A stretch of DNA of 64,000 bases, from contig JADFXT010000004.1 in NCBI GenBank assembly GCA_015233405.1, positions 100,470-164,469 on the forward strand, written 5' to 3'. Below, one piece after another: positions 18,913 to 61,120 of this stretch (within the stretch, counting starts at the first letter, position 1; every line of letters starts with the position of its first letter). The notes beneath the pieces are model-generated. The model saw only the letters and a list, made by a program, of their open reading frames with translations. It was not told the origin of the DNA and made no database searches. The stretch is from Candidatus Omnitrophota bacterium. Lineage in GTDB: Bacteria > Omnitrophota > Gorgyraeia > Zapsychrales > Zapsychraceae. The translations under genes and the position numbers were made by a program.

Positions 18913-18950
18913 GAAAAAAGCCCTGCTAAAAGCAGGGCCTTGTTTTATTT
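18913..18950 (-). terminator. intrinsic terminator (proposed native tRNA-Glu terminator displaced by the island)
   Basis: The minus strand reads GGGCTACCA-AATAAAACAAG-GCCCTGCT-TTT-AGCAGGGC-TTTTTT. This is a perfect 8-bp stem plus a U-tract, 11 nt after the distal copy of the tRNA 3' end. Confidence 0.6.
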
Positions 18951-18958
18951 GGTAGCCC
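18950..18958. repeat. 9-bp direct repeat of the tRNA-Glu 3' end (candidate distal att junction)
   Basis: TGGTAGCCC here is identical to 38733-38741 (the tRNA-Glu 3' terminus on the plus strand). It lies at the GC/AT composition switch. It is short, so the support is only moderate. Confidence 0.4.
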
Positions 18959-19897: not shown

Positions 19898-19914
19898 ATC
19901 TCTCCTCCATCTGG

Positions 19915-20538: not shown

Positions 20539-20582
20539 ATAAGAATTTTCAATTTAGCATAACAATCAATATTATTACGGAA

Positions 20583-21479: not shown

Positions 21480-21528
21480 GACATAAGTCCAATATTTTTA
21501 TGCAGTTTTCCTTGTCTCTACCCTGTTC

Positions 21529-22533: not shown

Positions 22534-22758
22534 ATAACTAACCTAAAATAAAAAACCTTCGCCAAGCATATGCCCAACAAAGGTTTTACTTTTTTAACGT
22601 TCGGGGTTTATCCCTTCCAACTCGGGACGATTATGACTTCTTATAGCGTTAATTTATCACAACTGTTTAATTCGTCAATCTGTTTCTCTGACGCAGAATG
22701 AATTCTCTCCGGCGATCCAGAAATATAACTCCTCTGAGAGACCCTCTACTAATAGATT

Positions 22759-22787
22759 AAAAAAACGCCGCGGTTATAAACCGCGGC
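22759..22787 (-). terminator. intrinsic terminator after the terminase gene
   Basis: GCCGCGG-TTTATAA-CCGCGGC followed by TTTTTTT on the minus strand, 23 nt after the TerL stop. Confidence 0.65.
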
Positions 22788-22809
22788 ATTTTAGTAAACA
22801 CTATCCTTA

Positions 22810-24501: not shown

Positions 24502-25171
24502 AAACCTCCTTGTTGTTTTGTAGTTCGTCCTTTTTCTTAGTCAGCTCAGAGATCTCTTCTACTATTTCAGCTTTCTCTATTTTTTGCTGAAGCAGTTTAA
24601 TATTCTCTTCTGTTTTCTCATCTAAAGTTCCTGTTTCCTTAGAAACTCTTTCTATTTCTTGAAGATCTTTTCTTAACTGTGAATATGCTTTTGTATCACC
24701 TCCTTCATAATGATGGTAGATATCGCCTACCAACTCTTTTGGCTTTAAAGGCATAAGGCCCAAACTTTGGAGTCGTTCGATTAACTCAACAAGAACACGC
24801 CAAGCGGAAACTCTGGCTTGGATTTTATTCGCATCCGAAACATTCTTCCCATTGCTAAGCCGAACTAGATAGTCGTGATGCGCTAATCCTTTTTTGAAAA
24901 TATCGCCTGACATCTGCTTTGCAAATTCGATACCGGGAGTTAAGGAATTCCTCTCACGTATTTCTCGAACATCGCGCTGAATGGTTTTTTCGCTGCGTTT
25001 AAGAATTTGTGCAACTTGAACTTCGGAGTAACCTTCCCCAACAAAAACCTCAACGCAGGATAATCGCACCTCTTTTGTTAAGGTCCGAGGATCAACAACG
25101 CCCGCCCTAACATCTTCGATAACTGAAATAATGGGGGTTTCTTGATTAAATGATTCTTTATCATCAACCAT
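24488..25171 (-). CDS. HTH protein in the terminase small subunit position
   Basis: 227 aa. It has the HTH YSEVQVAQILKRSEKTIQRDVREIRE and a C-terminal coiled coil. It overlaps the TerL start by 14 nt. Confidence 0.5.
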   Translation of the reverse strand: MVDDKESFNQETPIISVIEDVRAGVVDPRTLTKEVRLSCVEVFVGEGYSEVQVAQILKRSEKTIQRDVREIRERNSLTPGIEFAKQMSGDIFKKGLAHHDYLVRLSNGKNVSDANKIQARVSAWRVLVELIERLQSLGLMPLKPKELVGDIYHHYEGGDTKAYSQLRKDLQEIERVSKETGTLDEKTEENIKLLQQKIEKAEIVEEISELTKKKDELQNNKEVCDGQ

Positions 25172-26432: not shown

Positions 26433-26559
26433 ACGTACCTCCTTTTTATTGGTTACTAATGAATTAAAAAACACCGATAGGAAATAAAAAATCCCTATTA
26501 AAACTAAAAAATATTTTTTAAACATTGTGGCTTCTCCTCATTTTGATTTAGGCTATAAA

Positions 26560-26592
26560 ATAAAAAATCCTGTAAGGCGAACCTTACAGGAT
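26560..26592 (-). terminator. intrinsic terminator closing the defence gene array
   Basis: The minus strand reads ATCCTGTAAGG-TTCG-CCTTACAGGAT followed by TTTTTTATTTT. Confidence 0.65.
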
Positions 26593-26641
26593 AAACTATA
26601 TGATACAAAGACACCCCCGGCAAAGACAGACAGGAAGCGTA

Positions 26642-27256
26642 TTACCTTAAATGTTGATAATTAAGATTTATTATCTCTTTACACCTCCTATAATCTCGCT
26701 TGACGGACATCTTTGCATAACTCAAATTGCCGCCGGCAACCTCTTTAGGATAGAATTTTTTAGCTATTTCTTTGAGGCTCAATTTTTCCCAAGAATCAAA
26801 AACCCCCAAAAATCTATCATAAACGTAAACATTCACTCTTCCAGTCTTAACTTTCCTTAAAGACTGCCTATATCGCTTAAAATGAGGCGCCAACTGTTTC
26901 TCAAATTCCATAAGAATCGTTCTTTTAGGAAAATTAAGATATATTTCGAATGTGCCTTTTAAAAGATTGCCTAATTTCGTTGAATCAGCCTTAAGCAGTA
27001 CCGGAAAAGGCAGAAAGATATTCCTCTTTAATAGTTTTACATTCTCCTCATAAGTCTTACTTGGATCAGCTGGGCCACTGAGCCCCCAACCAATATAAAA
27101 CGCCTGCTCCACAACATCTTTACCCAATTTAGAAGATCTCTTACCTGCTACATACTTTTTATAAAAATTGATATACTTCTCGTTTCTTCTAAAAAATTCC
27201 CAGCGATATTTAGGACTGAGGCTCGCTATTATCTTAGAACTGGTTTTCTTTGCCAT
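26642..27256 (-). CDS. putative transcriptional regulator with an N-terminal WEFFRRN motif (DUF6499-like)
   Basis: 204 aa. YRWEFFRRNEKYINFY resembles the WEFLRRNxxY motif of DUF6499/DUF2285-type proteins of mobile elements. The C-terminus has an HTH-like LSLKEIAKKFY... Confidence 0.45.
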   Translation of the reverse strand: MAKKTSSKIIASLSPKYRWEFFRRNEKYINFYKKYVAGKRSSKLGKDVVEQAFYIGWGLSGPADPSKTYEENVKLLKRNIFLPFPVLLKADSTKLGNLLKGTFEIYLNFPKRTILMEFEKQLAPHFKRYRQSLRKVKTGRVNVYVYDRFLGVFDSWEKLSLKEIAKKFYPKEVAGGNLSYAKMSVKRDYRRCKEIINLNYQHLR

Positions 27257-27332
27257 TGCTACTCGCTTTTTAAACTTTATTCTTGCAGCTTAATCGTAAC
27301 TATTCTTTAATTTTATCTTGGGCATCCATCAT

Positions 27333-28178
27333 TCACAAAGACTGTGGTAAGACAATCAACAACGATTCCTTCTTTTCCTTTAACTCCATGTAATATCTCT
27401 GCCACCCATCTTCTGCCATAAGGCAATTAACAATTTTATTGTGATAATTTGCAAACCACGCATATTTCCTCAAAACGTGCAAATTTTCTTTATGCTCCCT
27501 CACTTTGTTATTTAGAATATCTACTACATTCCGAAGAATTGTTGGAGCCAAATAATAATCCGTCGCAACTGAAGCATAGATATTCAAACTATATAAGCCA
27601 TCTTCGTCGCGCAATAAGGAAGAATCTGGCCTGTGTTTCTTAAGACAAAGAGTGTCTACATCAATCCCTTCAAAAGCACTACTATCAACAATTATTCTTG
27701 GCACATCAGCGATATTCTCTGCCATCTCATATGCTTTTATCAAACCTCGACTAAAAATAAAATTACCTCCATCTAAGTTTTCAAACTGCCGCTGGTAGTA
27801 CTGGCCCCTAACAACGGCACCACGAAATAATAGTCCTGTTCCCCTTATACAATCTTGTAAAAGATAAGAAATCAATGTTAAAAACACATTGAGAATTATC
27901 ACACGTAAAGGATCCCTTTCTTCGTCTCCTCCTAAAAATCTTTGCCTGTCAAAAACAATAACGAAGGCGTCGCTTAGAACCTCAACAGAAACACAGGTTC
28001 TAAATACACCGGATTTACCAAGCTCGCTCTTTTCAATATAATCACGCCATCTCTTTAATGCGGAGTCAATAGGGGCGAAAAGGAAATTTGCCTCATCGGT
28101 AGTCATAACCCGATCGCGATATCCCAACATATCTAAGTACGCAATTAGACAATCTGAACTATTTACTTCTTTTTTCAT
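27333..28178 (-). CDS. hypothetical protein with a nucleotide-cyclase/GGDEF-like palm motif pattern
   Basis: 281 aa. LIAYLDMLGYRD (strand 1 with an acidic residue), EVLSDAFVIVFD (GDxF-like hairpin) and LLFRGAVVRGQYY...SRGLIKAYEMAE appear in the order of class III cyclase/GGDEF/mCpol palm domains. Confidence 0.35.
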   Translation of the reverse strand: MKKEVNSSDCLIAYLDMLGYRDRVMTTDEANFLFAPIDSALKRWRDYIEKSELGKSGVFRTCVSVEVLSDAFVIVFDRQRFLGGDEERDPLRVIILNVFLTLISYLLQDCIRGTGLLFRGAVVRGQYYQRQFENLDGGNFIFSRGLIKAYEMAENIADVPRIIVDSSAFEGIDVDTLCLKKHRPDSSLLRDEDGLYSLNIYASVATDYYLAPTILRNVVDILNNKVREHKENLHVLRKYAWFANYHNKIVNCLMAEDGWQRYYMELKEKKESLLIVLPQSL

Positions 28179-28259
28179 AAAATTACGAGAGGCGACTATG
28201 TTAGCCTATTTTAATAATCCTTTAAATCCAGGACGGCTTGCGCAATGCCTAAAAACTTT

Positions 28260-28703
28260 TTATTTTTCTTTATTAGCACCTAAAAACTTTGTTTTAGAGA
28301 TAACATTTATTAATTCATTCTCTAAAGAAAAATCGAGCTTTTCATTAAAAACTTTATTATATAAAATTTTCATCCCAGCATTGGCAAATTCCTCCGTTAT
28401 CTCCAACGCTTTCTTTCCATCAAGCAATATATCTGTTCCACCGGAATGTCTGATTGCAACTGCAAACAAAAACCACACTTCATCATCGCTCATATCTTTA
28501 AACAACCTGACATCAATAGATTTTTCGGTCGCCAACATCAACTGATCTTTAAACCCAAGAGCTGTTGCGAATAGATATATCCTTGTTTTTTGTTTCTTAT
28601 AAAACACAGACCTTTTATCTTCTATCAAAGGGTTTAAATATTTATCATTAATATTTCTATCCAACCTTAAATATCTCGGGAATTCATCATAATTTAGTTT
28701 CAT
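28260..28703 (-). CDS. hypothetical 147-aa helical protein coupled to the DndD-like ATPase
   Basis: Its ATG lies 1 nt after the ATPase stop. No motif recognised. Whether it is a DndE-like or ABC-3C middle-component-like protein is unverified. Confidence 0.5.
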   Translation of the reverse strand: MKLNYDEFPRYLRLDRNINDKYLNPLIEDKRSVFYKKQKTRIYLFATALGFKDQLMLATEKSIDVRLFKDMSDDEVWFLFAVAIRHSGGTDILLDGKKALEITEEFANAGMKILYNKVFNEKLDFSLENELINVISKTKFLGANKEK

Positions 28704-28704
28704 A

Positions 28705-30609
28705 TTAATCTTCCTTTATTGTCGTTATGCCTTTAGAATATTCTAAATTATATTTAAACACCGTTTTATCCTTATTTAATTCCCTCTCTATATCTTTTGT
28801 TAAATAACTATCTAAAGAAAATATAATAATTTGTTTTTCCGGAAGAAACTTTGGAAGGCTAGCAGCAACGTTGCTTTTAACCTCCTCGTCTAACATGCCC
28901 AAAGGATTATCTATAAAAATTGAAGCATTAAATCCCGAAATTGATGATAACGCGCCTAATAAAGCCAGCCCTAAGATTTTTCTTTCGCCGGTACTTAACG
29001 AGCCAAATATATTCACATGCTTTTTGTCTAAAACTTCAATTTCAAAAGCATCATTAATTTTTATTTGGACCAAATCATCCTTCCATCCAAGCTTTCTAAA
29101 ATTTGAGTTTGCTTCAGAAAGAATTATGTCATGTATTCGCTGAGAGACTTTTTCTTTTATTTCTTCCAGAACGCCCTTAATTTGCCTTGTCTCCTCATAA
29201 CAATTTTTTGCCTTTTTATTCCGCTCCTTAGTTTTTAATAATTTCTCGACAACATCCTCACTTATTTTCAATTGAATGTTCAAACCTTCCTTCTCCTTCT
29301 CTTTTGATCCAAGGTCTTTTTGTAAGCTTTCTATTTGACCAGTGATATCATTTATTGTTCTTTCAATATCCCCAACTCCTTCACCTAACCTTTTTAACAT
29401 CTCGCTTTTTTCTTTTAATGCTTGCTGGGTAGACTCATACGATTTTTTCTTTTCTTGATAATTCGTTTTACACTGTCGCATTTCTTGCTCGAAAATAGCT
29501 AATTTATTTTGTAACAGACCATTGAGGATATAAGAGCCTTCCATAAAAATACTTTTTTTATCTGCCTTATCTATTTTTATTAATAATGATTTCAATTCCT
29601 GATATTCTGGGCTATTTTTCTCTAAATGCCGTCCGCAGATACATCTTTTGATTTCTATAAGTTCATTTATTAATTTCGACCTAATACTCGGCGGAATTAG
29701 ACCCCTCTCCCTTTCTTGATCTAAAAGGCCACTCACATCGCAAAGTTCATCAGCCATATAAATAAGAGGACCCGATTCATAGATAAGATCATTGATCTGA
29801 TCTTTTATGTTTTCAATATTTTCAAACAAAGAGGCGCTATTCTTTTCCAAATTGTCACATTCAATTCTCAATATTCGAGCAGCCTCAACTTGTTTCTGCT
29901 GCTCCTTCATCTCTTCTCTTTGCTCTTTCAAATCTGAAATTCTTTTCTTATTTTCATTGATTGCTTTATCTAAAATCCTAATCCTGCCTTTCTTTAAATC
30001 TATTTTATCGTTATCCTTCTGTAGCTCAGGCAAATCTTTACTCGCATCCATTCGATACTCTGATTCTATTTTCTCCATATGATCAATGGTTCTATCTAAC
30101 AAATCAACCTGTGCCACACGATTAATGCCTTCTTTTATACTGTCACCATACTTAGAAACAAATATGTTCGCTATTTGCTCGCCATCAAATAAAAAGAAAT
30201 TTCGAACTTCTTTTGGTAAATAACGCCCCACATGTTCATTGGGATTTGGTAATATCCGAGGTTCCGCGGTCATTCCTCTTTTTTCAAAGACATTTAAAAT
30301 TGATCCTTTAGTGCCAACATGCAATATTCGTTGAAAAATCCAAGTTGCGATCTCATCTTTTGACCCAATCTCTATCTCAACCTCAACAATATCCCCAGGC
30401 TTGCATTCCTTATGCCAAATTGGTAGGCCTTGCAGTCCAGTCCTAAATGGCTCATCATCATATAAACACCAGTTTATTGCATTCAAAAAATTTGATTTTC
30501 CAGTCCCATTCTTTCCAACGAACAAGAATATCCTTTTATCATCAGAAAAAGAAATTTCTAAATTTCTATACTGTCTAAAATTTTTTAATAAAATCCTTTT
30601 TATTAACAT
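28705..30609 (-). CDS. DndD-like / Rad50-SMC-like coiled-coil ABC ATPase
   Basis: 634 aa. It has Walker A VGKNGTGKSNFLNAI, about 400 aa of K/E-rich coiled coil, the signature LSTGERK, and Walker B/D-loop IFIDNPLGMLDEE (the DxPLGxLD form typical of DndD). Confidence 0.75.
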   Translation of the reverse strand: MLIKRILLKNFRQYRNLEISFSDDKRIFLFVGKNGTGKSNFLNAINWCLYDDEPFRTGLQGLPIWHKECKPGDIVEVEIEIGSKDEIATWIFQRILHVGTKGSILNVFEKRGMTAEPRILPNPNEHVGRYLPKEVRNFFLFDGEQIANIFVSKYGDSIKEGINRVAQVDLLDRTIDHMEKIESEYRMDASKDLPELQKDNDKIDLKKGRIRILDKAINENKKRISDLKEQREEMKEQQKQVEAARILRIECDNLEKNSASLFENIENIKDQINDLIYESGPLIYMADELCDVSGLLDQERERGLIPPSIRSKLINELIEIKRCICGRHLEKNSPEYQELKSLLIKIDKADKKSIFMEGSYILNGLLQNKLAIFEQEMRQCKTNYQEKKKSYESTQQALKEKSEMLKRLGEGVGDIERTINDITGQIESLQKDLGSKEKEKEGLNIQLKISEDVVEKLLKTKERNKKAKNCYEETRQIKGVLEEIKEKVSQRIHDIILSEANSNFRKLGWKDDLVQIKINDAFEIEVLDKKHVNIFGSLSTGERKILGLALLGALSSISGFNASIFIDNPLGMLDEEVKSNVAASLPKFLPEKQIIIFSLDSYLTKDIERELNKDKTVFKYNLEYSKGITTIKED

Positions 30610-30632
30610 TTTATCCCCCAGGCCGTAACATA

Positions 30633-30803
30633 TTAATTGTTTTTCTCAATTATACTTTTTATCGTCTCTTTAAAACGAGGGCTTTGCTGATCAAGACATT
30701 CACGTTCATATCGAAATATATCTTCGAGCTTAGACTTTAATCCAGCGTCAAGATTAAGCTTGTTTGTTTCCTCTTTTATAATTTTATTAATTTCTTTTAT
30801 CAT
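30633..30803 (-). CDS. small hypothetical ORF (56 aa) between the PLD-helicase and the ATPase
   Basis: My own translation gives MIKEINKIIKEETNKLNLDAGLKSKLEDIFRYERECLDQQSPRFKETIKSIIEKNN. It has a strong Shine-Dalgarno (GGAGGGGTGAGGT-ATG). It falls below the 60-aa cutoff of the ORF track. Confidence 0.45.
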   Translation of the reverse strand: MIKEINKIIKEETNKLNLDAGLKSKLEDIFRYERECLDQQSPRFKETIKSIIEKNN

Positions 30804-30816
30804 ACCTCACCCCTCC

Positions 30817-32889
30817 TTATTCAAAATATACTTTAAATTGATTCATAATCTTGCTCAAGACTAATAAAACATAATCTTTATTTGTAGCAGAATCGAAGAA
30901 CTCTTTAGAACGGCGCACTTCTCTTGATATTATCTTTTGTTCAATACGAAGGATATCAGGATCTAACGCTGCGCCTTCTGCGGGAATCACAAAGAAATCA
31001 TAAATTATTGCTTTGTCTTTATGATGGTGCTTCCTTAAAACTCGACCTCTTCTTTGAATATATTGAGCAGGATTAGTACTGCTAGCCAAAATGATCGCGG
31101 TTTTTATAGACGGGATATCCACCCCCTCATCAAGACATCTTATCGCAATTAATGCCTTATAAAAGCCTTTTTCAAAAGCATCTAATATTTTCGATCTTTC
31201 ATCTTGGGTCTCTTCAAAAGTAATTTTACGTTGTAAGATATTGTGCTTATTTAATAACTGCGAAACCCATTTAATTTGCTCAGGGCTGCAATAAATAAGT
31301 AAATGATCTATTAAATTCGATTTCTTAAGATCTAAGATTATCTGCTCAAATCTTTTTTTCTTGTTTTCATTATTTACAATCAAATTAGCTCTATCAATAA
31401 GAAGTTTTCTTAAATAATTATCCCAATCGCCACCAGATCCATTCGTAGAGCATTTTGATACTTTTGAAATCTTCCTAGCCAACACAATATAATCTTCTAT
31501 TTCGTCACCCGTCATCTGCACCACCTCTGGATAATAATCATACGGGACCAAAAAATCCGGAATAGCTTCTTTAAGGCTAAAACGAAAAACGGTTCCCCCC
31601 ATATAATTTCTTAATTTATCGGAACCATCTTCATCAAACCATCTATCCGGCGTAGCGCTTAATCCAAGCCTAAATTTAAAGAAATCCCGCATACAATTCT
31701 GATTGCTGGATGAACCTAAATGATGAACCTCATCCGCTACGATCATTAAATTCTCATGATTATTAAGATACTTCTCTACTAAATCAATAAATTTGTTCTT
31801 AGAAAAGGTATCATATATAGTAAAGACTACAACCTTATCGGTGAACCTCAACAAAAAATTTTGAGCATACTCATTTAGGTCTTTTTCCCACATTCTTACC
31901 CCTGAGTGAGCCTCCATCATAAGAAATTGATCTTTAAAATGAGCAATAAATTCTTTCTTCCATTGGCTTACAAGATGAATATACGGGACCACTATTATAA
32001 GAAAAAGGCGTCCTTCTTTCTTAATTAACCGCTCTATTATCTTTAAAGATGTAAACGTTTTTCCTGTGCCTGTCGCCATTTCTAACATACCCTTACATTC
32101 GTGTGACTCCCAGGCATCAATTGCTTTCAGCTGATAAGGACGGACATCTCTTTTAGCGACTCCATCCAGATATTTCTTTCCTAAAACGCCCTCTTCAATA
32201 TTCGACGATAAATTTTCAAAATCAGCATAGTTCTTCGGCGCGATTCTAATTATTTTATTAGCAAATGCTTCAGAAATTGGATAAATTCTTGTTCTTTGAG
32301 TCTTCCCCTCCCACATTTTATTAAATTGTTCCAAATCATGCCTTAAATGCTCTTCCTCTACAAACCCTTTCCAGCTTCTAAACACATGAAACGTTTCATC
32401 ATTATAAAGCCATCCATTCGCCGTCTCATTATCAGAACCAGTAAACGACAATATATTCCCCTCTAAATCTTCTAATATTCCAATTTTTTGATGAATGATT
32501 CCCTGCGGCACAACCGCAATTCTAATGCTAAGCTTCTTTGTTTTTAACATCCACGACAGCATACTGACATGATCTTTCATCAGCTGTTCTTCCATATTTT
32601 CAATCTCTTGCAAAACCTTTTCTTCTTGTTCATATAACACCTCCTCAATCGCACGCTTGTCCTCTTCAGATAGAATAACGCTTGTAATTAAAAACATTTG
32701 CCCATCATTCTTAATAAAATTAGCTATCCCTTTGGCAGCTACAGCAAGCGAATTAGAAGAAAAAAATCCTGTAATCCTTTTGTAAATTTTTGCGGCTGAT
32801 AAGGTGGGAATATAAAACTCATTTAAAATATCATCTTGGTCTGACCAATAGGAAGGCTTTAAATTATAATCTGTTAAATTTTTATTCAT
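30817..32889 (-). CDS. PLD-family (HKD) nuclease fused to an SF2 ResIII-type helicase
   Basis: 690 aa. It has a single HKD motif IIHQKIGILEDLEGNILSFTGSDNET and the helicase motifs I MATGTGKT, II ADEVHH, III LSATP and VI QRRGRVLR. Confidence 0.8.
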   Translation of the reverse strand: MNKNLTDYNLKPSYWSDQDDILNEFYIPTLSAAKIYKRITGFFSSNSLAVAAKGIANFIKNDGQMFLITSVILSEEDKRAIEEVLYEQEEKVLQEIENMEEQLMKDHVSMLSWMLKTKKLSIRIAVVPQGIIHQKIGILEDLEGNILSFTGSDNETANGWLYNDETFHVFRSWKGFVEEEHLRHDLEQFNKMWEGKTQRTRIYPISEAFANKIIRIAPKNYADFENLSSNIEEGVLGKKYLDGVAKRDVRPYQLKAIDAWESHECKGMLEMATGTGKTFTSLKIIERLIKKEGRLFLIIVVPYIHLVSQWKKEFIAHFKDQFLMMEAHSGVRMWEKDLNEYAQNFLLRFTDKVVVFTIYDTFSKNKFIDLVEKYLNNHENLMIVADEVHHLGSSSNQNCMRDFFKFRLGLSATPDRWFDEDGSDKLRNYMGGTVFRFSLKEAIPDFLVPYDYYPEVVQMTGDEIEDYIVLARKISKVSKCSTNGSGGDWDNYLRKLLIDRANLIVNNENKKKRFEQIILDLKKSNLIDHLLIYCSPEQIKWVSQLLNKHNILQRKITFEETQDERSKILDAFEKGFYKALIAIRCLDEGVDIPSIKTAIILASSTNPAQYIQRRGRVLRKHHHKDKAIIYDFFVIPAEGAALDPDILRIEQKIISREVRRSKEFFDSATNKDYVLLVLSKIMNQFKVYFE

Positions 32890-32935
32890 AAAATATTTAT
32901 GCTTATTTCATTTATTCTTTTGTAGAAACCACTTC

Positions 32936-33709
32936 TTATCTTAACAAACTATCCTTAAAATCATTAAGATTTTCTTTTGGCGAGATCTTGCGGAAGACAA
33001 AGAGGTGTTCATGCATGATGAGAAGAAAATCTTTTTGCTGAGCATTCCAATATCTTGTGGTGGCGCAATTATGTTGAGTTTTAATGATGTCTTCTTTAAG
33101 AATAAAACCCGCCCTTAAGAACCTCTGCATTACATTAAAAGCCAACGGAACAAAATGCCTTCGTCGTCTTGTGTCGCCCATAAGAATAGCGCAATACTTG
33201 CCTGGCTTTAAAACTCTTAAACACTCTTTGGCAACCGAATCAATTTGATCGCAAAATTTGGTCAGGCTATTAATGGCCGACAAATCTCCTTCGATTTCCT
33301 TCTCGCTATATTGAATAATATTTAAGTACGGCGGATGTGTTACAACAAGATCCACTGATTCATCTTCTATTTTTTCAAGTTTTCTTGCATCCCCGATACA
33401 ACATTCTTGTTTTGACTTATTATCTGCATCAAAATTAAGCACTTCTTTACACAATTTTATGGCATTAGGATTAATATCTAACCCAATAGCGTTTCGATTT
33501 AATAATTTTGCTTCGACGAGTGTTGTGCCGCCACCCACCATAGGATCTAAAATTAGTTCGCCTTCTTGGGAATATCTAAGGATAAGATTTCTGGGAATTT
33601 GCGGCGCCCAATTGCCACGGTAGGTTGGCTTATGCGTTGCCCAATTGCCACGTTCCGGGAAGGACCAGACAGTCGTTGTTTCTAGTTTAAAATTTATTTC
33701 TTTACTCAT
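32936..33709 (-). CDS. DNA N6-adenine/N4-cytosine methyltransferase (second methylase)
   Basis: 257 aa. It has the SAM motif ILDPMVGGGTT, followed by the catalytic DLVVTHPPY. Its start overlaps the endonuclease stop by 8 nt. Confidence 0.8.
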   Translation of the reverse strand: MSKEINFKLETTTVWSFPERGNWATHKPTYRGNWAPQIPRNLILRYSQEGELILDPMVGGGTTLVEAKLLNRNAIGLDINPNAIKLCKEVLNFDADNKSKQECCIGDARKLEKIEDESVDLVVTHPPYLNIIQYSEKEIEGDLSAINSLTKFCDQIDSVAKECLRVLKPGKYCAILMGDTRRRRHFVPLAFNVMQRFLRAGFILKEDIIKTQHNCATTRYWNAQQKDFLLIMHEHLFVFRKISPKENLNDFKDSLLR

Positions 33710-34631
33710 TTCCTAAAACTATCCTTTCCAATATGCATTTTTCAACCATATCAAGGCTTAATAAATAATCATTCTGTTCGAATGTTTCTCTAAGCGGTCT
33801 TGAAGTAGTTTTCCATCCTTCTCCATCCGTTATCCAGATGAATTTATGCTTGCCTTTTAAAACATTTGCTAAATCTCGATATTCTCCCGCTGTGGCTTTT
33901 AACTTTGAGCCTCCTCCGCTATAGAAATTCACCTCAAGAATAAAAATCTCTTTTTTATTACTTATAACAAAATCATATCTTCTGGACGATTTATCTACGG
34001 GCACATTTACCTTAAATTTCTCTTTAATCTTATTCGCTGATGCTTCTTTCAAATACTCTAACCCATTTCTCTTGCATATATCTTGAATAAAGCTCTCAAC
34101 AATATCCTCCATTATAGTTCCGCCTCGATTCTTACGACCATTGCTATCCAGACCTGCCTCGACTCCAATCATATAATCAACCAGGTTCTTAATTCTTTTG
34201 CCAACCAGCAGTTCTTTTAATTTTGTTTCTTTAACAAAAGTTAAACACTTATTAATATCGTCATCCGTCAGCTTGTTCAAATCAAAGTTATAGTCTTCAT
34301 AAACTAACTTTTTGTTTTTATAATCGACCAGGATTTTAAATTTCTTTGTATTTTCCCCGTCACGAACTACCAGAGCCGGAATTATCCTTACAACTTCGGG
34401 GTGCTTCTTTAACAAACCCTTAAATTCTTCATCAAAATTATCTTTTCCAACTAAATAATTAAGGATATTAAGGCCAATCTCAATCTCTTTAACATTCTCA
34501 AAAACTTTCTCCCAATTTACAAAATAAGACCATACCAGTGTTGAGGGCTTAAGGTTATTAAGTAAATACTCAAAAACAGCATCTTTGTCCTTACAGCCAA
34601 TGATTTCTTTATAACTATTAAGATATTTCAT
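33702..34631 (-). CDS. DpnII/MboI-family GATC restriction endonuclease
   Basis: I moved the start to MKYLNSY (ATG at 34631). NLVDYMIGVEAGLDSNGRKNRGG, EVNFYSGGGSKLKATA, WITDGEGW and LRETF match my recollection of R.DpnII almost block for block. Confidence 0.85.
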   Translation of the reverse strand: MKYLNSYKEIIGCKDKDAVFEYLLNNLKPSTLVWSYFVNWEKVFENVKEIEIGLNILNYLVGKDNFDEEFKGLLKKHPEVVRIIPALVVRDGENTKKFKILVDYKNKKLVYEDYNFDLNKLTDDDINKCLTFVKETKLKELLVGKRIKNLVDYMIGVEAGLDSNGRKNRGGTIMEDIVESFIQDICKRNGLEYLKEASANKIKEKFKVNVPVDKSSRRYDFVISNKKEIFILEVNFYSGGGSKLKATAGEYRDLANVLKGKHKFIWITDGEGWKTTSRPLRETFEQNDYLLSLDMVEKCILERIVLGNE

Positions 34632-34648
34632 AGTCTTCCTTTCTAAAA

Positions 34649-35563
34649 TTAATAATTCATAACTAATATCTCTGTTACTTCCCCGCGCTTGTCTGCTTGG
34701 CAATTAATCATTCGATTAGCTTTGATCCTCTCAATATGATATCCACGATACAAATCATCAAAAAAATTATCCTTAGGATTAACATTTTTAGGATCTGAAT
34801 TACTTAACATAATGGATGCGCCTTTTTTATCAAGAATCCCGTAAATCTTTCTCAGGCGTTTTTGCTCACTATCATCAAAAATATCCTTAGAGTAACTTGT
34901 AAAACTTGCGGTCGATGACAGCGGCCTATAGGGCGGGTCAAAATAAACAAAAGATTCGCTGTTCGCATGTTCTAAACATAAAGCAAAATCTCCACAAATT
35001 ACCTCAGCTTTTTGCAAAAGATGATGCACAGCAAGAAGATTCTCCTCATTACAAATCGTTGGATTTTTATATCGCCCGAATGGAACATTAAACTCACCTG
35101 AAGAATTTACTCGATAGAGGCCATTAAAACATGTCTTATTAAGAAAAATCAAAAGCGCTGCACGATGAACAAAACTATTCGCAGCCTTTCTTCTTAAATA
35201 CGTATTAAATTCCTCTCGCTTCTGATAAAACATTTTCTCTCGCCCACTATCCGAACTTGATAAATATTCTAATTCGAACTGATCTAATTCTTTTAAAAGT
35301 TTCTTGATGTCTTTTTTGATAACTTGATAACAGAGGTTAACGGCTGGGTTGATTTCATACAAATATGCTTCCTCAAAATCATAATGCTCCGCAAGCCAAA
35401 AGAAAAGCGCTCCGCCGCCAAGAAATGGCTCAAAATATTTCTTAATCCACCCTTCTTTCAAAGAGTCTGGAAGATAATCAGCAATTTGATCAATCAACTG
35501 ACCTTTGCCGCCAGCCCACTTTAGAAACGGCTTAACTTGTCTTTCCGTAGTAATCATTTTCAC
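34649..35563 (-). CDS. Dam-family DNA adenine methyltransferase (GATC)
   Basis: 304 aa. It has the N-terminal PFLKWAGGKGQL, FEPFLGGGALFF and the catalytic YFDPPY. Confidence 0.9.
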   Translation of the reverse strand: MKMITTERQVKPFLKWAGGKGQLIDQIADYLPDSLKEGWIKKYFEPFLGGGALFFWLAEHYDFEEAYLYEINPAVNLCYQVIKKDIKKLLKELDQFELEYLSSSDSGREKMFYQKREEFNTYLRRKAANSFVHRAALLIFLNKTCFNGLYRVNSSGEFNVPFGRYKNPTICNEENLLAVHHLLQKAEVICGDFALCLEHANSESFVYFDPPYRPLSSTASFTSYSKDIFDDSEQKRLRKIYGILDKKGASIMLSNSDPKNVNPKDNFFDDLYRGYHIERIKANRMINCQADKRGEVTEILVMNY

Positions 35564-35564
35564 C

Positions 35565-36188
35565 TCAAAAATTAGGAATTGTGGTTACAACAACACCCTG
35601 CACTTGGAAATCATTTGTCAAAACAATCGGCCGATGCTGCTTGTTGCTTGATCTCGGCCTTAAAACATACGTCTCACCGCCGATAAGAAATTCTTTTATC
35701 ATCGCCTCATCATCAATCAACGCCACAACCGTGTCCCCGCTTTTCGCTGTCGTTTGCTGGCGGACTAAAACCAAATCGCCATCGTTGATCCCCTTCTGGT
35801 TCATGGAATCTCCCCGGGCCTGAATCAGAAAATACCGGTGCGGCGGCTTGGCTAATTTCACACTAACCGGGATTTGAGCCTGAATATTTTCTTCGGCAAG
35901 CATGGGCGCCCCACAAGCTACCCTGCCCACCAAAGGCACATCCACGGTTTGAGCGCGAGTTGTATCATCACCTAAACTTTTAATAAATTGCAAGTTGCCG
36001 TCCTCTTTGCGCCGTAAAACACCTTTCTTCATTAACTTATCAACAATTAAAGACGCTGAACGTGGAGATCGATAACCAAGAGAAGACATGAGTTCGCGCA
36101 TGGAAGGAATACGACCGACGTGCATGAGGGAGTTGCGAATTTCGCGGATGGCTTCTAATTCTTTATTAGTTACTGCTGCGGCTTGCAT
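35565..36188 (-). CDS. LexA-type repressor (wHTH + S24 autopeptidase)
   Basis: I moved the start to MQAAAVTNKELEAI (ATG at 36188). It has the LexA-like wHTH IPSMRELMSSLGYRSPRSASLIVDKLMKKGVL, a cleavage-site region RVACGAPMLAEE, the S24 Ser in GDSM and a Lys in MIKEF. Its stop abuts the Dam start. Confidence 0.8.
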   Translation of the reverse strand: MQAAAVTNKELEAIREIRNSLMHVGRIPSMRELMSSLGYRSPRSASLIVDKLMKKGVLRRKEDGNLQFIKSLGDDTTRAQTVDVPLVGRVACGAPMLAEENIQAQIPVSVKLAKPPHRYFLIQARGDSMNQKGINDGDLVLVRQQTTAKSGDTVVALIDDEAMIKEFLIGGETYVLRPRSSNKQHRPIVLTNDFQVQGVVVTTIPNF

Positions 36189-36205
36189 GTATACACTATT
36201 ATACA
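36188..36205. promoter_or_regulatory. candidate operator palindrome overlapping the repressor -10 element
   Basis: TGTATA-N6-TATACA is a perfect inverted repeat. On the minus strand a consensus TATAAT (36203-36198) lies 9 nt upstream of the repressor ATG. Confidence 0.45.
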
Positions 36206-36315
36206 GGGAAGATAATTTGTCAATAATATTTTTTCGTAAAAAAATTTCTGCTCTATATAACTTGCTATCTCTCAAATTGTATGGCTTATATGACACTAAC
36301 GAAAGGAGAGAACCC

Positions 36316-36789
36316 GTGGATGAAACCATTGCCGCTCAGATAGAAACGCTAAAAAATATGCCACTCTTAGATCTTCAAAACAAATATCAAGAGCTGTTCG
36401 GCACAAAAGAAACGCCTTGTGATAATAAGGTATACATTTTAAGAATGATCGCTTACAAGCTCCAAGAAATGAACTGCGGGGGCTTGTCTGATGAGGCCAA
36501 ATCTAAACTTGAGATCCTTACAACGAGATATGACCCTATTAATAATAAAGCGCTTCGCCCCCAGGTTACATCCGTCGGGAAAGAAGTTAAGGCGCTGCCG
36601 TTCTTGAGAGACAAACGCCTTCCGATTCCGGGGACTGTTATTACAAAGAAGTATAAAGGGCAGCTGATCAGGGTGAAGGTCCTTGAAAAAGGATTTGAAC
36701 ACGACAATGTTTATTATAAAAGCCTGTCTGCGCTTGCAACCAAAATCACCGGGGATCATTGGAATGGCTATAACTTTTTTTGTATCTAG
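36316..36789 (+). CDS. DUF2924 family protein (recombinase accessory)
   Basis: I moved the start to the GTG at 36316 (AAGGAGAG Shine-Dalgarno). LRMIAYKLQEMNCGGLS...LPIPGTVITKKYKGQLIRVKVLEKGFEHDNVYYKSLSALATKITGDHWNGYNFF follows the DUF2924 pattern usually found upstream of large serine recombinases. Confidence 0.7.
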   Translation: MDETIAAQIETLKNMPLLDLQNKYQELFGTKETPCDNKVYILRMIAYKLQEMNCGGLSDEAKSKLEILTTRYDPINNKALRPQVTSVGKEVKALPFLRDKRLPIPGTVITKKYKGQLIRVKVLEKGFEHDNVYYKSLSALATKITGDHWNGYNFFCI

Positions 36790-36797
36790 AAAAATAT

Positions 36798-38423
36798 ATG
36801 GAAAATAACGAGACCAAAGAGAAAAAACAGCTTAATTGCGCGATTTATACTCGCGTCTCCACCACTGAAGGCTTGGAGCAACAATTTACCTCCCTTGATA
36901 ACCAACGCGAAGCAGCTGAAAGTTACATTCAAAGCCAAAAATCAGAAGGCTGGACGGCATTACCGGAGCATTACGACGATGCAGGCTTTACCGGAGCCAA
37001 TACGGACAGACCTGCTTTACAGAAACTTGTTGAAGATATCAAAGCGCACAAAATTAACTGCGTTGTTGTCTATAAAGTTGATCGTCTGTCGCGCTCGCTT
37101 CTGGATTTCAGCAAATTATTGGAGTTCTTCGATCAAAACAACATTGCCTTTGTCTCTGTCACTCAGCATTTTAATACCAATACCTCGATGGGCAGGCTAA
37201 CCTTAAACATCCTCCTTTCGTTTGCCCAGTTCGAGCGGGAAATCATCAGCGAACGAACCAAAGACAAGATGGCCGCTTCCAAGAAGAAAGGGAAATGGGT
37301 CGGCGGATGCGTTCCTCTAGGTTATGACATCGATAGAGAAAACCGCAAGCTGGTCATTAATCCGGAGGAAGCAAAAATTGTGCGTGAAATATTTGATGCC
37401 TACCTCAAAGAAAGAACGCTCATGGCTGCCGTAGGGGTTATCAATGACAGAGGCTACGTAACGAAAAAATACCAATCGCTGGGAGGCAAAAAACGCGGCG
37501 GGATCAAATTTCAAGTAACATCAATTAATCAGATAGTCAAAAACGTATGCTACACCGGCAAGGTAAAGCACGATGGCATCCTATATCCTGGGGAACAAGA
37601 ACGAATTATATCCGACGAGGTTTTCACAAAAGCCCAGGAGCTGATAGCGGCAAATAGGCGCGTGTTTTTTAATAAGCCGAAGCACAACAAAATAAGTTTA
37701 CTTGGGCATATCCTACGCTGCAAAGATTGCGATGCTGTGATGAATATTTTTTATTCTGAAAAAAGAAACGGAAAATGCCGATACTTCCATTATGTATGCC
37801 TGAGCGCACACAAACGCGGCTACAAAACATGCCCTACCAAACTTGTGAACGCCAACCTTATGGATAATAAAGCCATGGCTTGCTTAAGATCTATTACGGA
37901 TGACCCGAGGATAAATAGCGAAAAGTGGGACGTTCTTGGGCTTGATAAAAAAATATTAATTATTAGATCAATTATTAAACAAGTCCGCTACAGTGGAGCC
38001 AATGAAATACTTGAAATCCAGCTACAAGACGATACGGTACATCAATTTAAGGTTTTAAAACAGGACTTGAAACAGGTCTCCCCTCTGTCAAAAGAACGCT
38101 TAATAAAGACCGAGCCGCAATTAAGGCAAAACCTGCTCCTTGCCCACCAGATCCAGAAACTTCTCTTCGAAGGGAAATCGAACAGTTTAAAACAAATAGC
38201 CGGATGGCTCAATATAAGCCCGCAAAGAATCAACCAACTAAGGAACCTTGTCCTCCTCTGCCCCAAAATTCAAGAAAACATCTTTCTGGGAGAAAGCTCC
38301 ATAATCTCCCAAATCCCCGAGTACAAGCTGCGAAAAATAACGGATACGATGGGTTGGCAGGAACAGCAGAATCTTTGGCAAAAACTGCTAAATACTGCCA
38401 GCGAACAATCCAAACATCTCTAG
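36798..38423 (+). CDS. large serine recombinase (integrase)
   Basis: The catalytic domain has AIYTRVSTTEGL...SLDNQ...VVVYKVDRLSRS. A recombinase domain and a zinc ribbon (CKDCDAVM...CLSAHKRGYKTC) follow, then a C-terminal coiled-coil region. Confidence 0.9.
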   Translation: MENNETKEKKQLNCAIYTRVSTTEGLEQQFTSLDNQREAAESYIQSQKSEGWTALPEHYDDAGFTGANTDRPALQKLVEDIKAHKINCVVVYKVDRLSRSLLDFSKLLEFFDQNNIAFVSVTQHFNTNTSMGRLTLNILLSFAQFEREIISERTKDKMAASKKKGKWVGGCVPLGYDIDRENRKLVINPEEAKIVREIFDAYLKERTLMAAVGVINDRGYVTKKYQSLGGKKRGGIKFQVTSINQIVKNVCYTGKVKHDGILYPGEQERIISDEVFTKAQELIAANRRVFFNKPKHNKISLLGHILRCKDCDAVMNIFYSEKRNGKCRYFHYVCLSAHKRGYKTCPTKLVNANLMDNKAMACLRSITDDPRINSEKWDVLGLDKKILIIRSIIKQVRYSGANEILEIQLQDDTVHQFKVLKQDLKQVSPLSKERLIKTEPQLRQNLLLAHQIQKLLFEGKSNSLKQIAGWLNISPQRINQLRNLVLLCPKIQENIFLGESSIISQIPEYKLRKITDTMGWQEQQNLWQKLLNTASEQSKHL

Positions 38424-38659
38424 TTTATTCTTCCCACATTAAGCCGATTTCCTAGTTTATACCTATATACTGATATTTATAATTCGACTAAATAGCTAAA
38501 ATTGGCATAAACTACCCGCTATAAACTACGAGATATTTCGCCATATTTTAAAGATATTCTTGATTAATATTTTACAATTTACCGCTGGAGATCTGAACGG
38601 AAGGTTTTACGAATATGCGCGAAAAAAATATTGCCCTAAGCCTTTGAAACAGCGCCAGA

Positions 38660-38695
38660 TAAAAAAATCCCTGATCGATTTTGTCAATCAGGGAT
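38660..38695 (-). terminator. intrinsic terminator downstream of tRNA-Glu (island side)
   Basis: ATCCCTGAT-N11-ATCAGGGAT is followed by TTTTTTT on the minus strand, about 38 nt after the tRNA 3' end. Confidence 0.6.
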
Positions 38696-38732
38696 TATAA
38701 ACTCTCTATCCTTCAAACGAGAGAGAACTTAC

Positions 38733-38810
38733 TGGTAGCCCCAACCGGATTTGAACCGGTGTTTTCTGCCTGAGAAGCAGACGTCCTGGACCAGGCTAGA
38801 CGATGGGGCC
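38733..38810 (-). tRNA. tRNA-Glu (anticodon CUC), CCA encoded
   Basis: The minus strand reads GGCCCCATCGTCTAGCCTGGTCCAGGACGTCTGCTTCTCAGGCAGAAAACACCGGTTCAAATCCGGTTGGGGCTACCA. The acceptor is 7 bp, the anticodon arm is TCTGC/TTCTCAG/GCAGA, and the T-arm is ACCGG/TTCAAAT/CCGGT. Confidence 0.9.
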
Positions 38811-38867
38811 GAAATTCTTTTCTTTGTTTACATCTTCCCCTCGAGACCGCTCTGCCGCGTTGCGGCA

Positions 38868-38911
38868 CTGGACTCCCGCTTCGCGGGACAGGCAGGCTAG
38901 ACGATGGGGCC
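38868..38911 (-). pseudogene. tRNA-Glu 5' fragment (nt 1-25) with a 19-nt hairpin inserted in the D-loop
   Basis: The minus strand reads GGCCCCATCGTCTAGCCTG[CCTGTCCCGCGAAGCGGGA]GTCCAG. The flanks are identical to the intact gene 57 nt downstream. No acceptor 3' strand or T-arm follows. Confidence 0.7.
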
Positions 38912-39089
38912 ATAAAATGAACGTTAGAATCATACCATATTTTTTCTTAAGGTCAACCTCAACTTTCCGGCTTCTCATCGACAGGCAAGGAGACATCAGT
39001 CCGTCGCCGAAAATCGGGATAAAGATTGACACCATTTTTAGCGAAGGATAGAATAAACATCAATTAAAGCAATTCAGGAGATCATTCGC

Positions 39090-43842: not shown

Positions 43843-43913
43843 TGCGCGGGGTGGGACTTGAACCTGCCTGCCGGCAGGCAGGCCCACATGGATTGCTCCA
43901 CACGCCCATCAAA
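43843..43913 (-). pseudogene. tRNA-Leu 3' fragment (nt 32-82) with a 20-nt palindrome at the T-stem/T-loop junction
   Basis: The minus strand reads TTTGATGGGCGTGTGGAGCAATCCATGTGGG[CCTGCCTGCCGGCAGGCAGG]TTCAAGTCCCACCCCGCGCA. It matches the intact gene except for one anticodon-loop change and the insert (43863-43882). Confidence 0.75.
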
Positions 43914-43949: not shown

Positions 43950-44195
43950 TTAATCCTTTAATAACCTTAATTTAATCCATTCTTTACCTATACCAGATTT
44001 CAAATATTTCTCTCGTTTTCTTGCATCAATTCTTGAAAAAAACAATTCAACATTAATTAACTGAAATGGTCTGTAGGCCCTTGTTTTCTTATTATAACCT
44101 TTTTGATGTTGTTCAAAACGCCTTTTAACATCATTTGTTAATCCCACATAAATATACTTTCTCAATTTACTAAAAATAACATAAACATAATACAT
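43950..44195 (-). CDS. small GIY-YIG nuclease family protein
   Basis: 81 aa. It has YYVYVIFS...YVGLTNDVKRRFEQH...KREKYLK (GIY-YIG motifs, conserved Arg and Glu) and no extra DNA-binding domain. Confidence 0.85.
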   Translation of the reverse strand: MYYVYVIFSKLRKYIYVGLTNDVKRRFEQHQKGYNKKTRAYRPFQLINVELFFSRIDARKREKYLKSGIGKEWIKLRLLKD

Positions 44196-44226: not shown

Positions 44227-44308
<82 letters not shown>

Positions 44309-44343
44309 TTAGAAAAACATCAAATCAATCCCGAACCTGACAA

Positions 44344-44411
44344 TGCGCGTCTACCAACCTGCCTTCGGCAGACAGGCCTGCCTGCCGGCAGGCAGGTTCC
44401 GCCACCCGCGC
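44344..44411 (-). pseudogene. tRNA-Leu 5' fragment (nt 1-29) with two hairpins (39 nt) inserted in the D-loop
   Basis: The minus strand reads GCGCGGGTGGCGGAA[CCTGCCTGCCGGCAGGCAGG][CCTGTCTGCCGAAGGCAGG]TTGGTAGACGCGCA and then diverges. The fragment starts 6 nt after the pyrG stop. Confidence 0.75.
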
Positions 44412-44416
44412 TTAGA

Positions 44417-59385: not shown

Positions 59386-61120
<1,735 letters not shown>

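Follow-up and report, generated by a model that had tools for sequence, protein, structure and literature searches.

Why does a broken copy of the beginning of a transfer RNA (tRNA) gene stand just ahead of the intact gene? The question is raised by the tRNA-Glu locus of a Candidatus Omnitrophota bacterium, in a window of 64,000 nucleotides (nt) that was analysed as a whole (assembly GCA_015233405.1, contig JADFXT010000004.1, positions 100,470 to 164,469, forward strand). Here a 5' fragment of tRNA-Glu, interrupted by a small hairpin, lies 57 nt upstream of the complete tRNA-Glu. We think it probable that in this fragment the gene's original 5' end survives in displaced form, as the scar of a homing-type element that carries a small GIY-YIG nuclease of the SLX1/UPF0213-like kind and has at this site lost its open reading frame (ORF). 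Loci in other genomes and contigs are cited by our own labels (L001 and so on), and the island that adjoins tRNA-Glu at its 3' end is described last. Read along the minus strand, the locus contains the following features.

38929..38956, minus strand: sigma-70-like promoter, TTGACC-16-TATGAT, TG-extended, upstream of the fragment; kept in L201, L205, L208 and L209
17 nt, minus strand: leader between the promoter and the fragment
38893..38911, minus strand: copy of tRNA-Glu nt 1-19, GGCCCCATCGTCTAGCCTG, identical at 19/19 positions; the presumed original 5' end, still joined to the promoter
38874..38892, minus strand: 19-nt D-loop insert CCTGTCCCGCGAAGCGGGA, a hairpin of the type that we call P2 (CCTGT, a stem of 5-6 base pairs (bp), a GAA loop and the complementary stem)
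38868..38873, minus strand: GTCCAG, tRNA-Glu nt 20-25, the end of the duplicated segment
38853..38867, minus strand: second hairpin TGCCGCAACGCGGCA, TGCCGC-AAC-GCGGCA, directly after the fragment
38811..38852, minus strand: A-rich spacer of 42 nt with no detectable ORF remnant
38733..38810, minus strand: intact tRNA-Glu(CUC) with encoded CCA, called by ARAGORN and by Rfam (58.1 bits)
38666..38696, minus strand: intrinsic terminator-like hairpin and T-run after tRNA-Glu, on the island side of the junction

The minus strand thus reads GGCCCCATCGTCTAGCCTG, CCTGTCCCGCGAAGCGGGA and GTCCAG between 38911 and 38868. A preliminary description of this DNA had called the fragment identical to the tRNA-Glu gene, and it is: nt 1-19 match tRNA-Glu(CUC) at every position (blastn-short, E = 1.4e-5) and nt 20-25 resume past the 19-nt insert. 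The gap to the gene runs from 38811 to 38867. Folded as single-stranded DNA, CCTGTCCCGCGAAGCGGGA forms a 6-bp stem with a GAA loop (-6.4 kcal/mol, z = -3.76) and TGCCGCAACGCGGCA, which adjoins the end of the fragment, reaches -6.5 kcal/mol. Because no promoter-like site was found between the fragment and tRNA-Glu, the fragment should belong to the primary transcript of the gene. In the predicted RNA fold, GGCCCCAU of the fragment pairs with the 3' acceptor strand of tRNA-Glu and would compete with the correct fold. A search of the window with Rfam at gathering thresholds returned two tRNAs only.

A tRNA-Leu gene 5.4 kb from tRNA-Glu, between pyrG and rpe, is flanked by 5' and 3' fragments of tRNA-Leu and by a GIY-YIG ORF.

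44344..44416, minus strand: tRNA-Leu 5' fragment, made up of 'tctaa', nt 1-15, the hairpin P1 CCTGCCTGCCGGCAGGCAGG (44377-44396), the hairpin P2 CCTGTCTGCCGAAGGCAGG (44358-44376) and nt 16-29
44309..44343, minus strand: spacer of 30 nt and a repeated 'tctaa', from the fragment to the intact gene, with no ORF
44227..44308, minus strand: intact tRNA-Leu(GAG), called by ARAGORN and Rfam
43950..44195, minus strand: ORF of 81 amino acids (aa) for a GIY-YIG nuclease, a minimal catalytic domain of the SLX1/UPF0213-like branch with all family-invariant residues present
43843..43913, minus strand: tRNA-Leu 3' fragment from nt 32 onward to the 3' end, with a single mismatch, carrying an exact P1 (43863-43882) at T-loop position 53/54; the post-tRNA gttt is also repeated

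The order at tRNA-Leu is therefore 5' fragment with P1 and P2 in its D-loop, tRNA, GIY-YIG ORF, and 3' fragment with P1 in its T-loop. P1 is a perfect palindrome of 20 nt, and CCTGTCTGCCGAAGGCAGG, at 19 nt, has the same length as the insert in the tRNA-Glu fragment. Two proposals of the preliminary description are borne out: that two unrelated tRNA loci share one architecture, as is seen at tRNA-Glu and tRNA-Leu, and that the tRNA-Glu insert and the second tRNA-Leu insert form one hairpin family, whose stems covary in other genomes as described below. It had overlooked the 3' tRNA-Leu fragment with its T-loop palindrome, the GIY-YIG ORF between that fragment and the tRNA, and the occurrence of P1 across many phyla. 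We read the tRNA-Leu site as one relic on the 5' side plus one ORF-bearing copy on the 3' side.

The association of nuclease ORF, tRNA fragment and hairpin was evaluated in a sample chosen independently of P1, for which metagenomes were searched with a profile of the ORF protein and the 80 best loci were examined. A tRNA-Leu on the same strand (anticodons GAG, CAA, CAG or UAA) lies beside the ORF in 63 of these 80 loci; the remainder are mostly truncated contigs or tandem arrays. The tRNA begins 7-46 nt past the ORF stop codon in 55 of the 63, and it precedes the ORF in the other eight, as it does in the window. Where the ORF is upstream of the tRNA, 49 of 50 loci have a P1-like sequence (at most 3 edits) in the 150 nt before the ORF, enclosed in a 5' fragment of tRNA-Leu; where the ORF is downstream, 6 of 7 have one in the 3' fragment past the ORF. 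The background for such sequences is 2 matches in 129.6 kb. The usual order of the upstream type is thus a tRNA 5' fragment with a P1-like hairpin, the ORF, and the intact tRNA, with the ORF often ending 0-20 nt from tRNA position +1.

Among the 43 tRNA 5' fragments with an insert found across all loci, 41 are interrupted in the D-loop (nt 11-23) and 2 at the borders of the anticodon loop; 32 of the 43 inserts are exactly 20 nt long, no target sequence being duplicated or deleted. Inserts in 3' fragments lie at 31/32, 38/39 or 53/54. The edges of the duplicated segment vary, the start from 35 nt before the tRNA to +1 and the end from nt 20 to nt 71.

Loci found through P1 extend the arrangement to other tRNAs. 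The family ORF lies within ~170 nt of P1 in L010, L037, L039, L060, L106, L118 and the window. L118 has the layout tRNA-Leu nt 1-14, P1, nt 15-20, then ORF, then tRNA-Leu, and the same is seen at tRNA-Gly (L106) and tRNA-Lys (L037). The architecture also occurs at tRNA-Met (L077), and truncated or ORF-less forms occur at Val, Asp, Gln, Ser, Met and Glu. Several ORFs are decaying: the one at tRNA-Lys is frameshifted (L037), a 56-aa remnant stands at tRNA-Val (L039), and a C-terminal half lies beside tRNA-Gln (L074). Scars with no ORF include a tRNA-Asp fragment with a 30-nt double hairpin (L077) and a tRNA-Glu(CUC) accompanied by a 5' and a 3' fragment in a metagenome-assembled genome (MAG) of Yanofskybacteria, of the candidate phyla radiation (CPR) (L084). 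Tandem arrays of the unit fragment, P1, fragment and ORF were found in L133, L147, L156 and L179. In L166 a host tRNA-Leu (acceptor stem GCCGGAG/CTCCGGC) is split at 31/32 into two halves, each with P1 at its broken end, and between them stand the ORF and a different complete tRNA-Leu, and in L192, L193 and L197 the fragment sequence is unlike the adjacent gene.

One of these loci is of another kind. At L060:3861-4142, in a Thermodesulfobacteriota MAG, P1 and the GIY-YIG ORF lie in frame within an HsdS-like specificity gene. P1 is translated there as PACRQAG, and the same peptide is present in many over-extended ORF calls of the GIY-YIG family.

The FIST protein beside tRNA-Glu in the window is 100% identical to a MAG protein at NCBI, and no identical PyrG was on record. 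We also compared the orthologous tRNA-Glu site in six Omnitrophota lineages, reached through the neighbouring FIST protein, whose percentage identity to that of the window is given in brackets.

L201-L204, four independent assemblies (66%): same promoter; fragment GGCCCCATCGTtTAG; insert of ~105 nt ending in TCCCGC-tcaaaga-GCGGGA; tRNA-like continuation
L206 (58%): degenerate fragment ~110 nt upstream of tRNA-Glu
L205 (61%): long leader with no recognisable fragment
L208 (59%): empty site, with promoter, short leader of ~25 nt and tRNA
L209 (60%): empty site, with promoter, short leader of ~45 nt and tRNA
L207 (58%): no tRNA-Glu beside the FIST gene

With the conserved promoter as reference, the fragments of the window and of L201 line up with the true tRNA start of the empty sites L208 and L209, which is what a displaced original 5' end predicts. 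In L201-L204 the sequence 'ttttatc' is duplicated, once ahead of the fragment and once ahead of the gene, and the window and L201 share the same 6-bp stem, TCCCGC/GCGGGA. The FIST tree joins the window and L201 as sisters and places L206 with the empty L208, which suggests one old insertion common to the window and L201 and an independent one in L206. At the tRNA-Leu site between pyrG and rpe, L205 is empty and L208 has a 3' scar. Occupied and empty forms thus exist at both conserved tRNA sites, in a comparison of distant relatives (58-66% neighbour-protein identity) and not at the level of alleles. The preliminary description had reasoned that absence of the fragment from relatives and a lack of further examples would suggest an isolated slippage duplication; in fact the island-free L201 has a 5' fragment with the same stem, and dozens more examples exist.

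The 3' scar in L208 (12990-13200) consists of the tRNA-Leu(GAG) 3' end and 37 nt of flank, duplicated 125 nt further on with GC-rich hairpins between. It is an ORF-less downstream scar at the same gene as the ORF-bearing tRNA-Leu of the window.

The hairpins were followed beyond these loci. P2-type hairpins in tRNA-Leu fragments of other organisms have the stems CTGCC/GGCAG, CCCGC/GCGGG, CTCCC/GGGAG and CTACC/GGTAG (stem pairs were tabulated by script). Because all four stems differ in sequence yet pair completely, with double changes at three of the pairs, the hairpin is the conserved feature. Examples are L178, where P1 is followed by the P2-type CCTGTCTCCCGAAGGGAGA in the tRNA-Leu D-loop, L135 with CCTGCCTCCCGAAGGGATGG, and L145 and L194 with CCTGTCTACCGACAGGTAGA. 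P2-type units look like P1 without its outer 3' arm. Within the window, the pattern CCTGTC-N4-GAAG with one mismatch allowed gives 3 matches against 1.98 expected, which is only weakly significant. Outside the array of clustered regularly interspaced short palindromic repeats (CRISPR), the 64 kb contain seven hairpins that are GC-rich and have a stem of 6 bp or more, and four of the seven are in or beside the three tRNA fragments.

In a collection with one genome for each GTDB species, exact P1 has at least 120 loci, with ~1 expected by chance according to our own estimate from the size of that collection. Its range covers Patescibacteria/CPR, Bacteroidota, Omnitrophota, Planctomycetota, Gamma- and Deltaproteobacteria, Thermodesulfovibrionia, Verrucomicrobia and Elusimicrobia, and it includes cultured Bacteroidota (Winogradskyella, Flagellimonas, Longitalea, Flavivirga, Aquiflexum and Aestuariivivens). 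P1 was also found in 35 stretches of IMG/VR viral contigs. Of ~125 copies, 16 have a tRNA gene no more than 500 nt away, compared with ~2% for a random position by our rough expectation. In L004 and L001 (Leu), L030 (Val), L083 (Ser) and L015, P1 occupies the D-loop of a 5' fragment just before the intact tRNA. Further copies occupy loops of inverted repeats of the host, low-complexity repeats and, nested, the loop of another P1.

Several observations on hairpins stand apart from the tRNA fragments of the window. On an IMG/VR contig (L234:2239-2330), a complete tRNA-Met has P1 at the variable-loop position and is still called a tRNA by ARAGORN; P1 might here be a tolerated extra arm, rather than the mark of a pseudogene. 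One IMG/VR contig of 29.5 kb (L230, L237 and L238) has six P1 copies, several of them centred in another repeated element, GGGTGCCCCATCCTCGCGG...[P1]CGAGGGTGGGTC. Other perfect GC-rich palindromes, TCCGCCAGCTGGCGGA, TCCCGATAGCTATCGGGA and GGGACAGGTCGCGACCTGTCCC, stand beside P1 or in tRNA fragments of different phyla (L011, L016, L062, L199 and L112), and P1 may be one member of a larger set because such palindromes recur across phyla. The window itself has a hairpin TCCCGCGAAAGCGGGA at 966-981 with the flanks gtcat...a, similar to a repeat found twice in a Shapirobacteria contig (L101), and possibly another small repeat family.

How could such loci arise? A complete element would comprise a stand-alone GIY-YIG ORF of ~80 aa, a GC-rich hairpin (P1 or CCTGT-stem-GAA-stem) and a copy of the displaced tRNA segment to take its place. 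At tRNA-Glu, this small selfish element would have invaded the gene at the D-loop and left the old 5' end behind. The insertion would rebuild a working tRNA beside the ORF, and the old segment would keep the hairpin at a loop-coding position and stay with the promoter if the ORF is upstream of the tRNA, or with the terminator if it is downstream. In the route that we envisage, the nuclease would break a tRNA gene and the break would be repaired by copying from an element-bearing copy, with the conserved tRNA sequence as homology; this would explain why each nuclease lineage keeps to one tRNA type. The hairpin might then mark or disrupt the redundant fragment, remove the target and cut the repeat too short for the ORF to be recombined away. 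Its role could be that of a break-site mark, a protection of the fragment against cutting, a block to recombination between repeats, or an independent passenger resembling repetitive extragenic palindromic (REP) sequences. Its confinement to loop-coding positions and its nesting within itself point to a structure-dependent insertion step. The ORF at tRNA-Glu would later have been lost, leaving fragment, hairpins and spacer, with which tRNA-Glu would be transcribed as a leader of ~110 nt that RNase P would have to remove.

A number of results weigh against the scar of a nuclease element. When P1 is found by sequence, the family ORF is near it in only ~7 of 121 genome sources and in 1 of 35 viral-contig stretches; because most P1 copies are without the ORF nearby, the hairpin may move or persist alone. 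The tRNA-Glu hairpin is of the P2 type and not P1. No GIY-YIG ORF was found beside any tRNA-Glu recovered, and so the link of tRNA-Glu to such an ORF draws on the shared architecture. The leaders of tRNA-Glu in the window, L201 and L206 have no recognisable ORF remnant: when the Glu, Leu and Asp leaders were translated in six frames and searched with a hidden Markov model for remains of a GIY-YIG ORF, the best match (E = 0.6) was noise. The insert positions vary (nt 14/15, 22/23, 31/32, 38/39 and 53/54), which disfavours one fixed cleavage site. Finally, the 81-aa protein is a catalytic domain only, and sequence-specific recognition of a tRNA gene is doubtful because it has no separate DNA-binding domain.

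Some of these results would suit hairpins that act for themselves. Autonomous REP-like palindromes could enter dispensable DNA hairpins, or arise there, and provoke local tandem duplication by replication slippage, with tRNA fragments and ORFs as bystanders or loosely linked companions. The many contexts of P1 away from both tRNAs and ORFs (inverted-repeat loops, low-complexity repeats, viral contigs and P1 itself) are in keeping with this, as are direct repeats of at least 10 nt, which flank solitary P1 in 9% of cases versus 1.8% of controls, and the layout X-P1-y'-X-y of the L115 type, which has no ORF at all. We nevertheless regard this explanation as unlikely. Loci picked by their ORF, regardless of P1, carry P1 in the adjacent tRNA fragment in all but one of 50 cases over a background of 2 in 130 kb, with the ORF placed exactly between the fragment and the intact tRNA, often at 0-20 nt from +1, and slippage does not explain a fragment that differs from the adjacent tRNA, as in L166 and L192. 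It is less probable again that the host keeps the fragment and hairpins as a structured 5' leader that tunes the folding, processing or amount of tRNA-Glu. The promoter does drive the whole leader, the predicted fold has GGCCCCAU in competition for the 3' acceptor strand, the same 6-bp stem is kept in the window and L201 lineages, and the fragment matches its gene at 25/25 positions in the window and 14/15 in L201 despite a FIST protein only 66% identical and an otherwise diverged leader. However, short-tract gene conversion from a gene 100 nt away would equally preserve the identity of the fragment, the stem does not covary between these two lineages, the short fragment-free leaders of L208 and L209 mean that the fragment is not required, and the same architecture recurs at many unrelated tRNAs together with a selfish-looking ORF.

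We give almost no credence to the fragment as an attachment-site scar of the integrase-borne island, an isolated slippage duplication or an assembly artefact. The island does use this tRNA-Glu and palindromes can disturb assembly, but the island repeat is the 3'-terminal 9 nt, 19.8 kb off on the other side of the tRNA, whereas the fragment is a 5' piece 57 nt away; moreover, identical fragment-bearing leaders are present in four independent assemblies (L201-L204) and the phenomenon recurs in isolates and complete genomes. The displaced 5' end of a GIY-YIG element remains the explanation that we prefer.

Other candidates were tried and rejected in the course of the analysis. An integrase attachment scar would not be at this end of the tRNA, nor so near the gene. 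Split-tRNA halves joined through a shared palindrome were dropped in view of the intact gene and of inserts that lie within loops rather than at ends; as for a split, permuted or intron-bearing tRNA, a complete tRNA-Glu adjoins the fragment and the window has no 3' partner. P1 is not a 5' untranslated-region element of the ORF, being downstream of the ORF where the ORF follows the tRNA, and it is not a terminator, no T-run following it. An adaptor or assembly artefact was set aside because P1 occurs in isolates, complete genomes and independent assemblies, and a single fixed cleavage site marked by P1 because of the varying insert positions.

The protein encoded at tRNA-Leu belongs to the GIY-YIG superfamily (Pfam PF01541, E = 2.8e-17), and residues Y5, Y16, G18, R26, H30 and E62 are invariant in an alignment with 24 homologues. 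The best matches of its profile among PDB sequences are the UPF0213 proteins BH0048 (1zg2, E = 7.3e-8) and EF2693 (1ywl, 1.4e-7), with eukaryotic SLX1 at 2e-3 and I-TevI much weaker at 0.05, and by these comparisons the ORF is a minimal stand-alone form of the SLX1 branch. Nuclease activity is predicted for it, with a tRNA gene as its putative target. The closest homologues are 60-70% identical and come from several phyla, often on short contigs. The profile recovers 15,882 cluster representatives at E <= 1e-3 and 3,235 at E <= 1e-10; among 50,697 phage records tblastn detected nothing that matches the ORF, and an NCBIfam search with the ORF gave a sub-threshold hit to a group I intron endonuclease only.

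The nearest known system is SegB of phages T4 and T6. SegB is a free-standing GIY-YIG homing endonuclease in a tRNA gene cluster that cuts inside tRNA genes at RAWTSGAAC, spreads by break repair and builds tandem repeats of tRNA plus segB (PMC13096335). In our own reading, RAWTSGAAC matches the conserved T-loop sequence of tRNA genes. Both systems thus place a GIY-YIG gene among tRNA genes, and the SegB repeats resemble the arrays of L133, L147 and L156. However, SegB has no described association with a conserved palindrome or with tRNA fragments interrupted by a hairpin, and the words 'hairpin' and 'palindrom' are absent from the report (PMC13096335). SegB is a phage protein of the I-TevI/Seg branch, whereas the ORF of the window is chromosomal, is absent from the 50,697 phage records and falls in the SLX1/UPF0213 branch. 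Seg proteins are also much larger than 81 aa and have a DNA-binding region. What sets the element of the window apart from SegB is its minimal SLX1-like nuclease, its chromosomal spread across phyla, the hairpin-interrupted tRNA fragments and the invariant 20-nt palindrome. Compared with free-standing GIY-YIG homing endonuclease genes of the Seg type, it has the catalytic domain, with the conserved Tyr, Tyr, Arg and Glu residues, and the site polymorphism but not the separate DNA-binding domain.

Prokaryotic SLX1-like proteins have been described as a minimal stand-alone form with one domain, inherited mostly vertically, in a 2006 survey that left parasitic GIY-YIG members as a question (PMC1564403). 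The clade of the window differs in that it would be mobile, with links to tRNA genes and to a palindrome. Branched and stem-loop DNA are substrates of SLX1, and a preference of this kind would suit the targeting of hairpins or loops. In the open-access literature we found no description of an element combining the hairpin and a GIY-YIG ORF at tRNA genes; the SegB report and the 2006 superfamily survey were the only relevant papers.

In their hairpins, the loci resemble REPs with their REP-associated tyrosine transposases (RAYTs). REPs are GC-rich hairpins with a 5' tetranucleotide GTAG and covarying stems, associated with a single nuclease gene and present as many solitary hairpins; the family of the window likewise has a tetranucleotide, CCTG(T/C), covarying stems, one hairpin-flanked nuclease gene and solitary hairpins. 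It differs in having a GIY-YIG nuclease and not an HUH Y1 transposase, in its tie to partial tRNA duplications, and in P1: REPs are specific to a species, but P1 keeps the same sequence from phylum to phylum and is also found in viral contigs. In fungal mitochondria (e.g., atp6 of Allomyces), a mobile GIY-YIG ORF carries a replacement gene end and the old end is left as a pseudogene fragment, and mitochondrial GC clusters and double-hairpin elements are small GC-rich palindromes that spread in AT-rich DNA. These elements are organellar and have protein-coding targets, and we know of no targeting of tRNA loops and no cross-phylum 20-nt palindrome among them. Islands that target tRNA genes also leave partial tRNA copies flanking the inserted DNA and regenerate the tRNA, but they use tyrosine or serine recombinases, duplicate the 3' part and span kilobases. 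Here the pieces are 5' or 3', lie 30-330 nt from the gene and have a hairpin inside, with no recombinase. The tRNA-Glu fragment does not bound a recombinase-bearing island as a tRNA 3' repeat does, and the 9-nt repeat of the island is separate from it.

A wider proposal, which we advance only tentatively and would not yet call probable, is that the miniature GIY-YIG ORF and P1/P2 form an unrecognised class of structure-targeting mobile elements, a GIY-YIG counterpart of REP/RAYT. Such elements would insert a 20-nt palindrome cleanly, without target duplication, into loop-coding positions (tRNA arms, inverted repeats and the palindrome itself), invade essential tRNA genes with a replacement segment, and spread among phyla and viruses. 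If so, many bacterial 'stand-alone SLX1-like' proteins would be selfish and not repair enzymes, and a tiny, widespread element would be hidden under the annotation 'GIY-YIG nuclease family protein', rewiring the transcription units of essential tRNAs in Omnitrophota, CPR/Patescibacteria, Bacteroidota and others. This offers a testable role for bacterial SLX1-like mini-nucleases and would account for pseudo-fragments of tRNAs, for tRNA leaders that are long and structured and for short contigs broken at these repeats. CCTGCCTGCCGGCAGGCAGG would serve as a 20-nt diagnostic marker of the element. It also raises the question of how a perfect palindrome enters hairpin loops cleanly and stays identical across phyla, and a nuclease of 80 residues whose DNA partner is defined might attract interest as a tool.

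The island at the 3' end of tRNA-Glu covers ~19.8 kb (~18,959 to 38,732), bounded by a 9-nt repeat, and has these further features.

18950..18958, minus strand: repeat GGGCTACCA of the tRNA-Glu 3' end, followed by a relative-like trailer and terminator; probable far junction of the island
36780..38423, plus strand: large serine recombinase of the island, an event separate from the hairpin element

The 3'-terminal 9 nt of tRNA-Glu, GGGCTACCA (38741-38733), recur at 18958-18950, where the trailer and terminator are like those after tRNA-Glu in L201, and the DNA past tRNA-Glu is different in every relative. Because of this repeat with its trailer and terminator and the variable downstream DNA, with recombinase-bearing DNA between the two copies, we agree with the preliminary description that tRNA-Glu is the attachment site of an island, at its 3' end. 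The fragment, in contrast, lies at the 5' end, and fragment and island are therefore independent events, a distinction that the preliminary description did not draw. Besides the recombinase, the island encodes a terminase, an HNH endonuclease, a ParB-methylase, a DpnII restriction-modification system, a Dam methylase, an S24/LexA-like repressor and a DUF2924 protein. Its GC content falls to 33-37% at 26-36 kb.

Elsewhere in the window, a CRISPR array at 59368-61129, presumably of a type I-C-like system, has 27 repeats (GTTTCAATCCACGCGCCCGCACGGGGCGCGAC). Three of its spacers are nearly alike: AATACGGCGTTCCGTTTCCGTCTGAAATTA[C/A]GCT and a variant.

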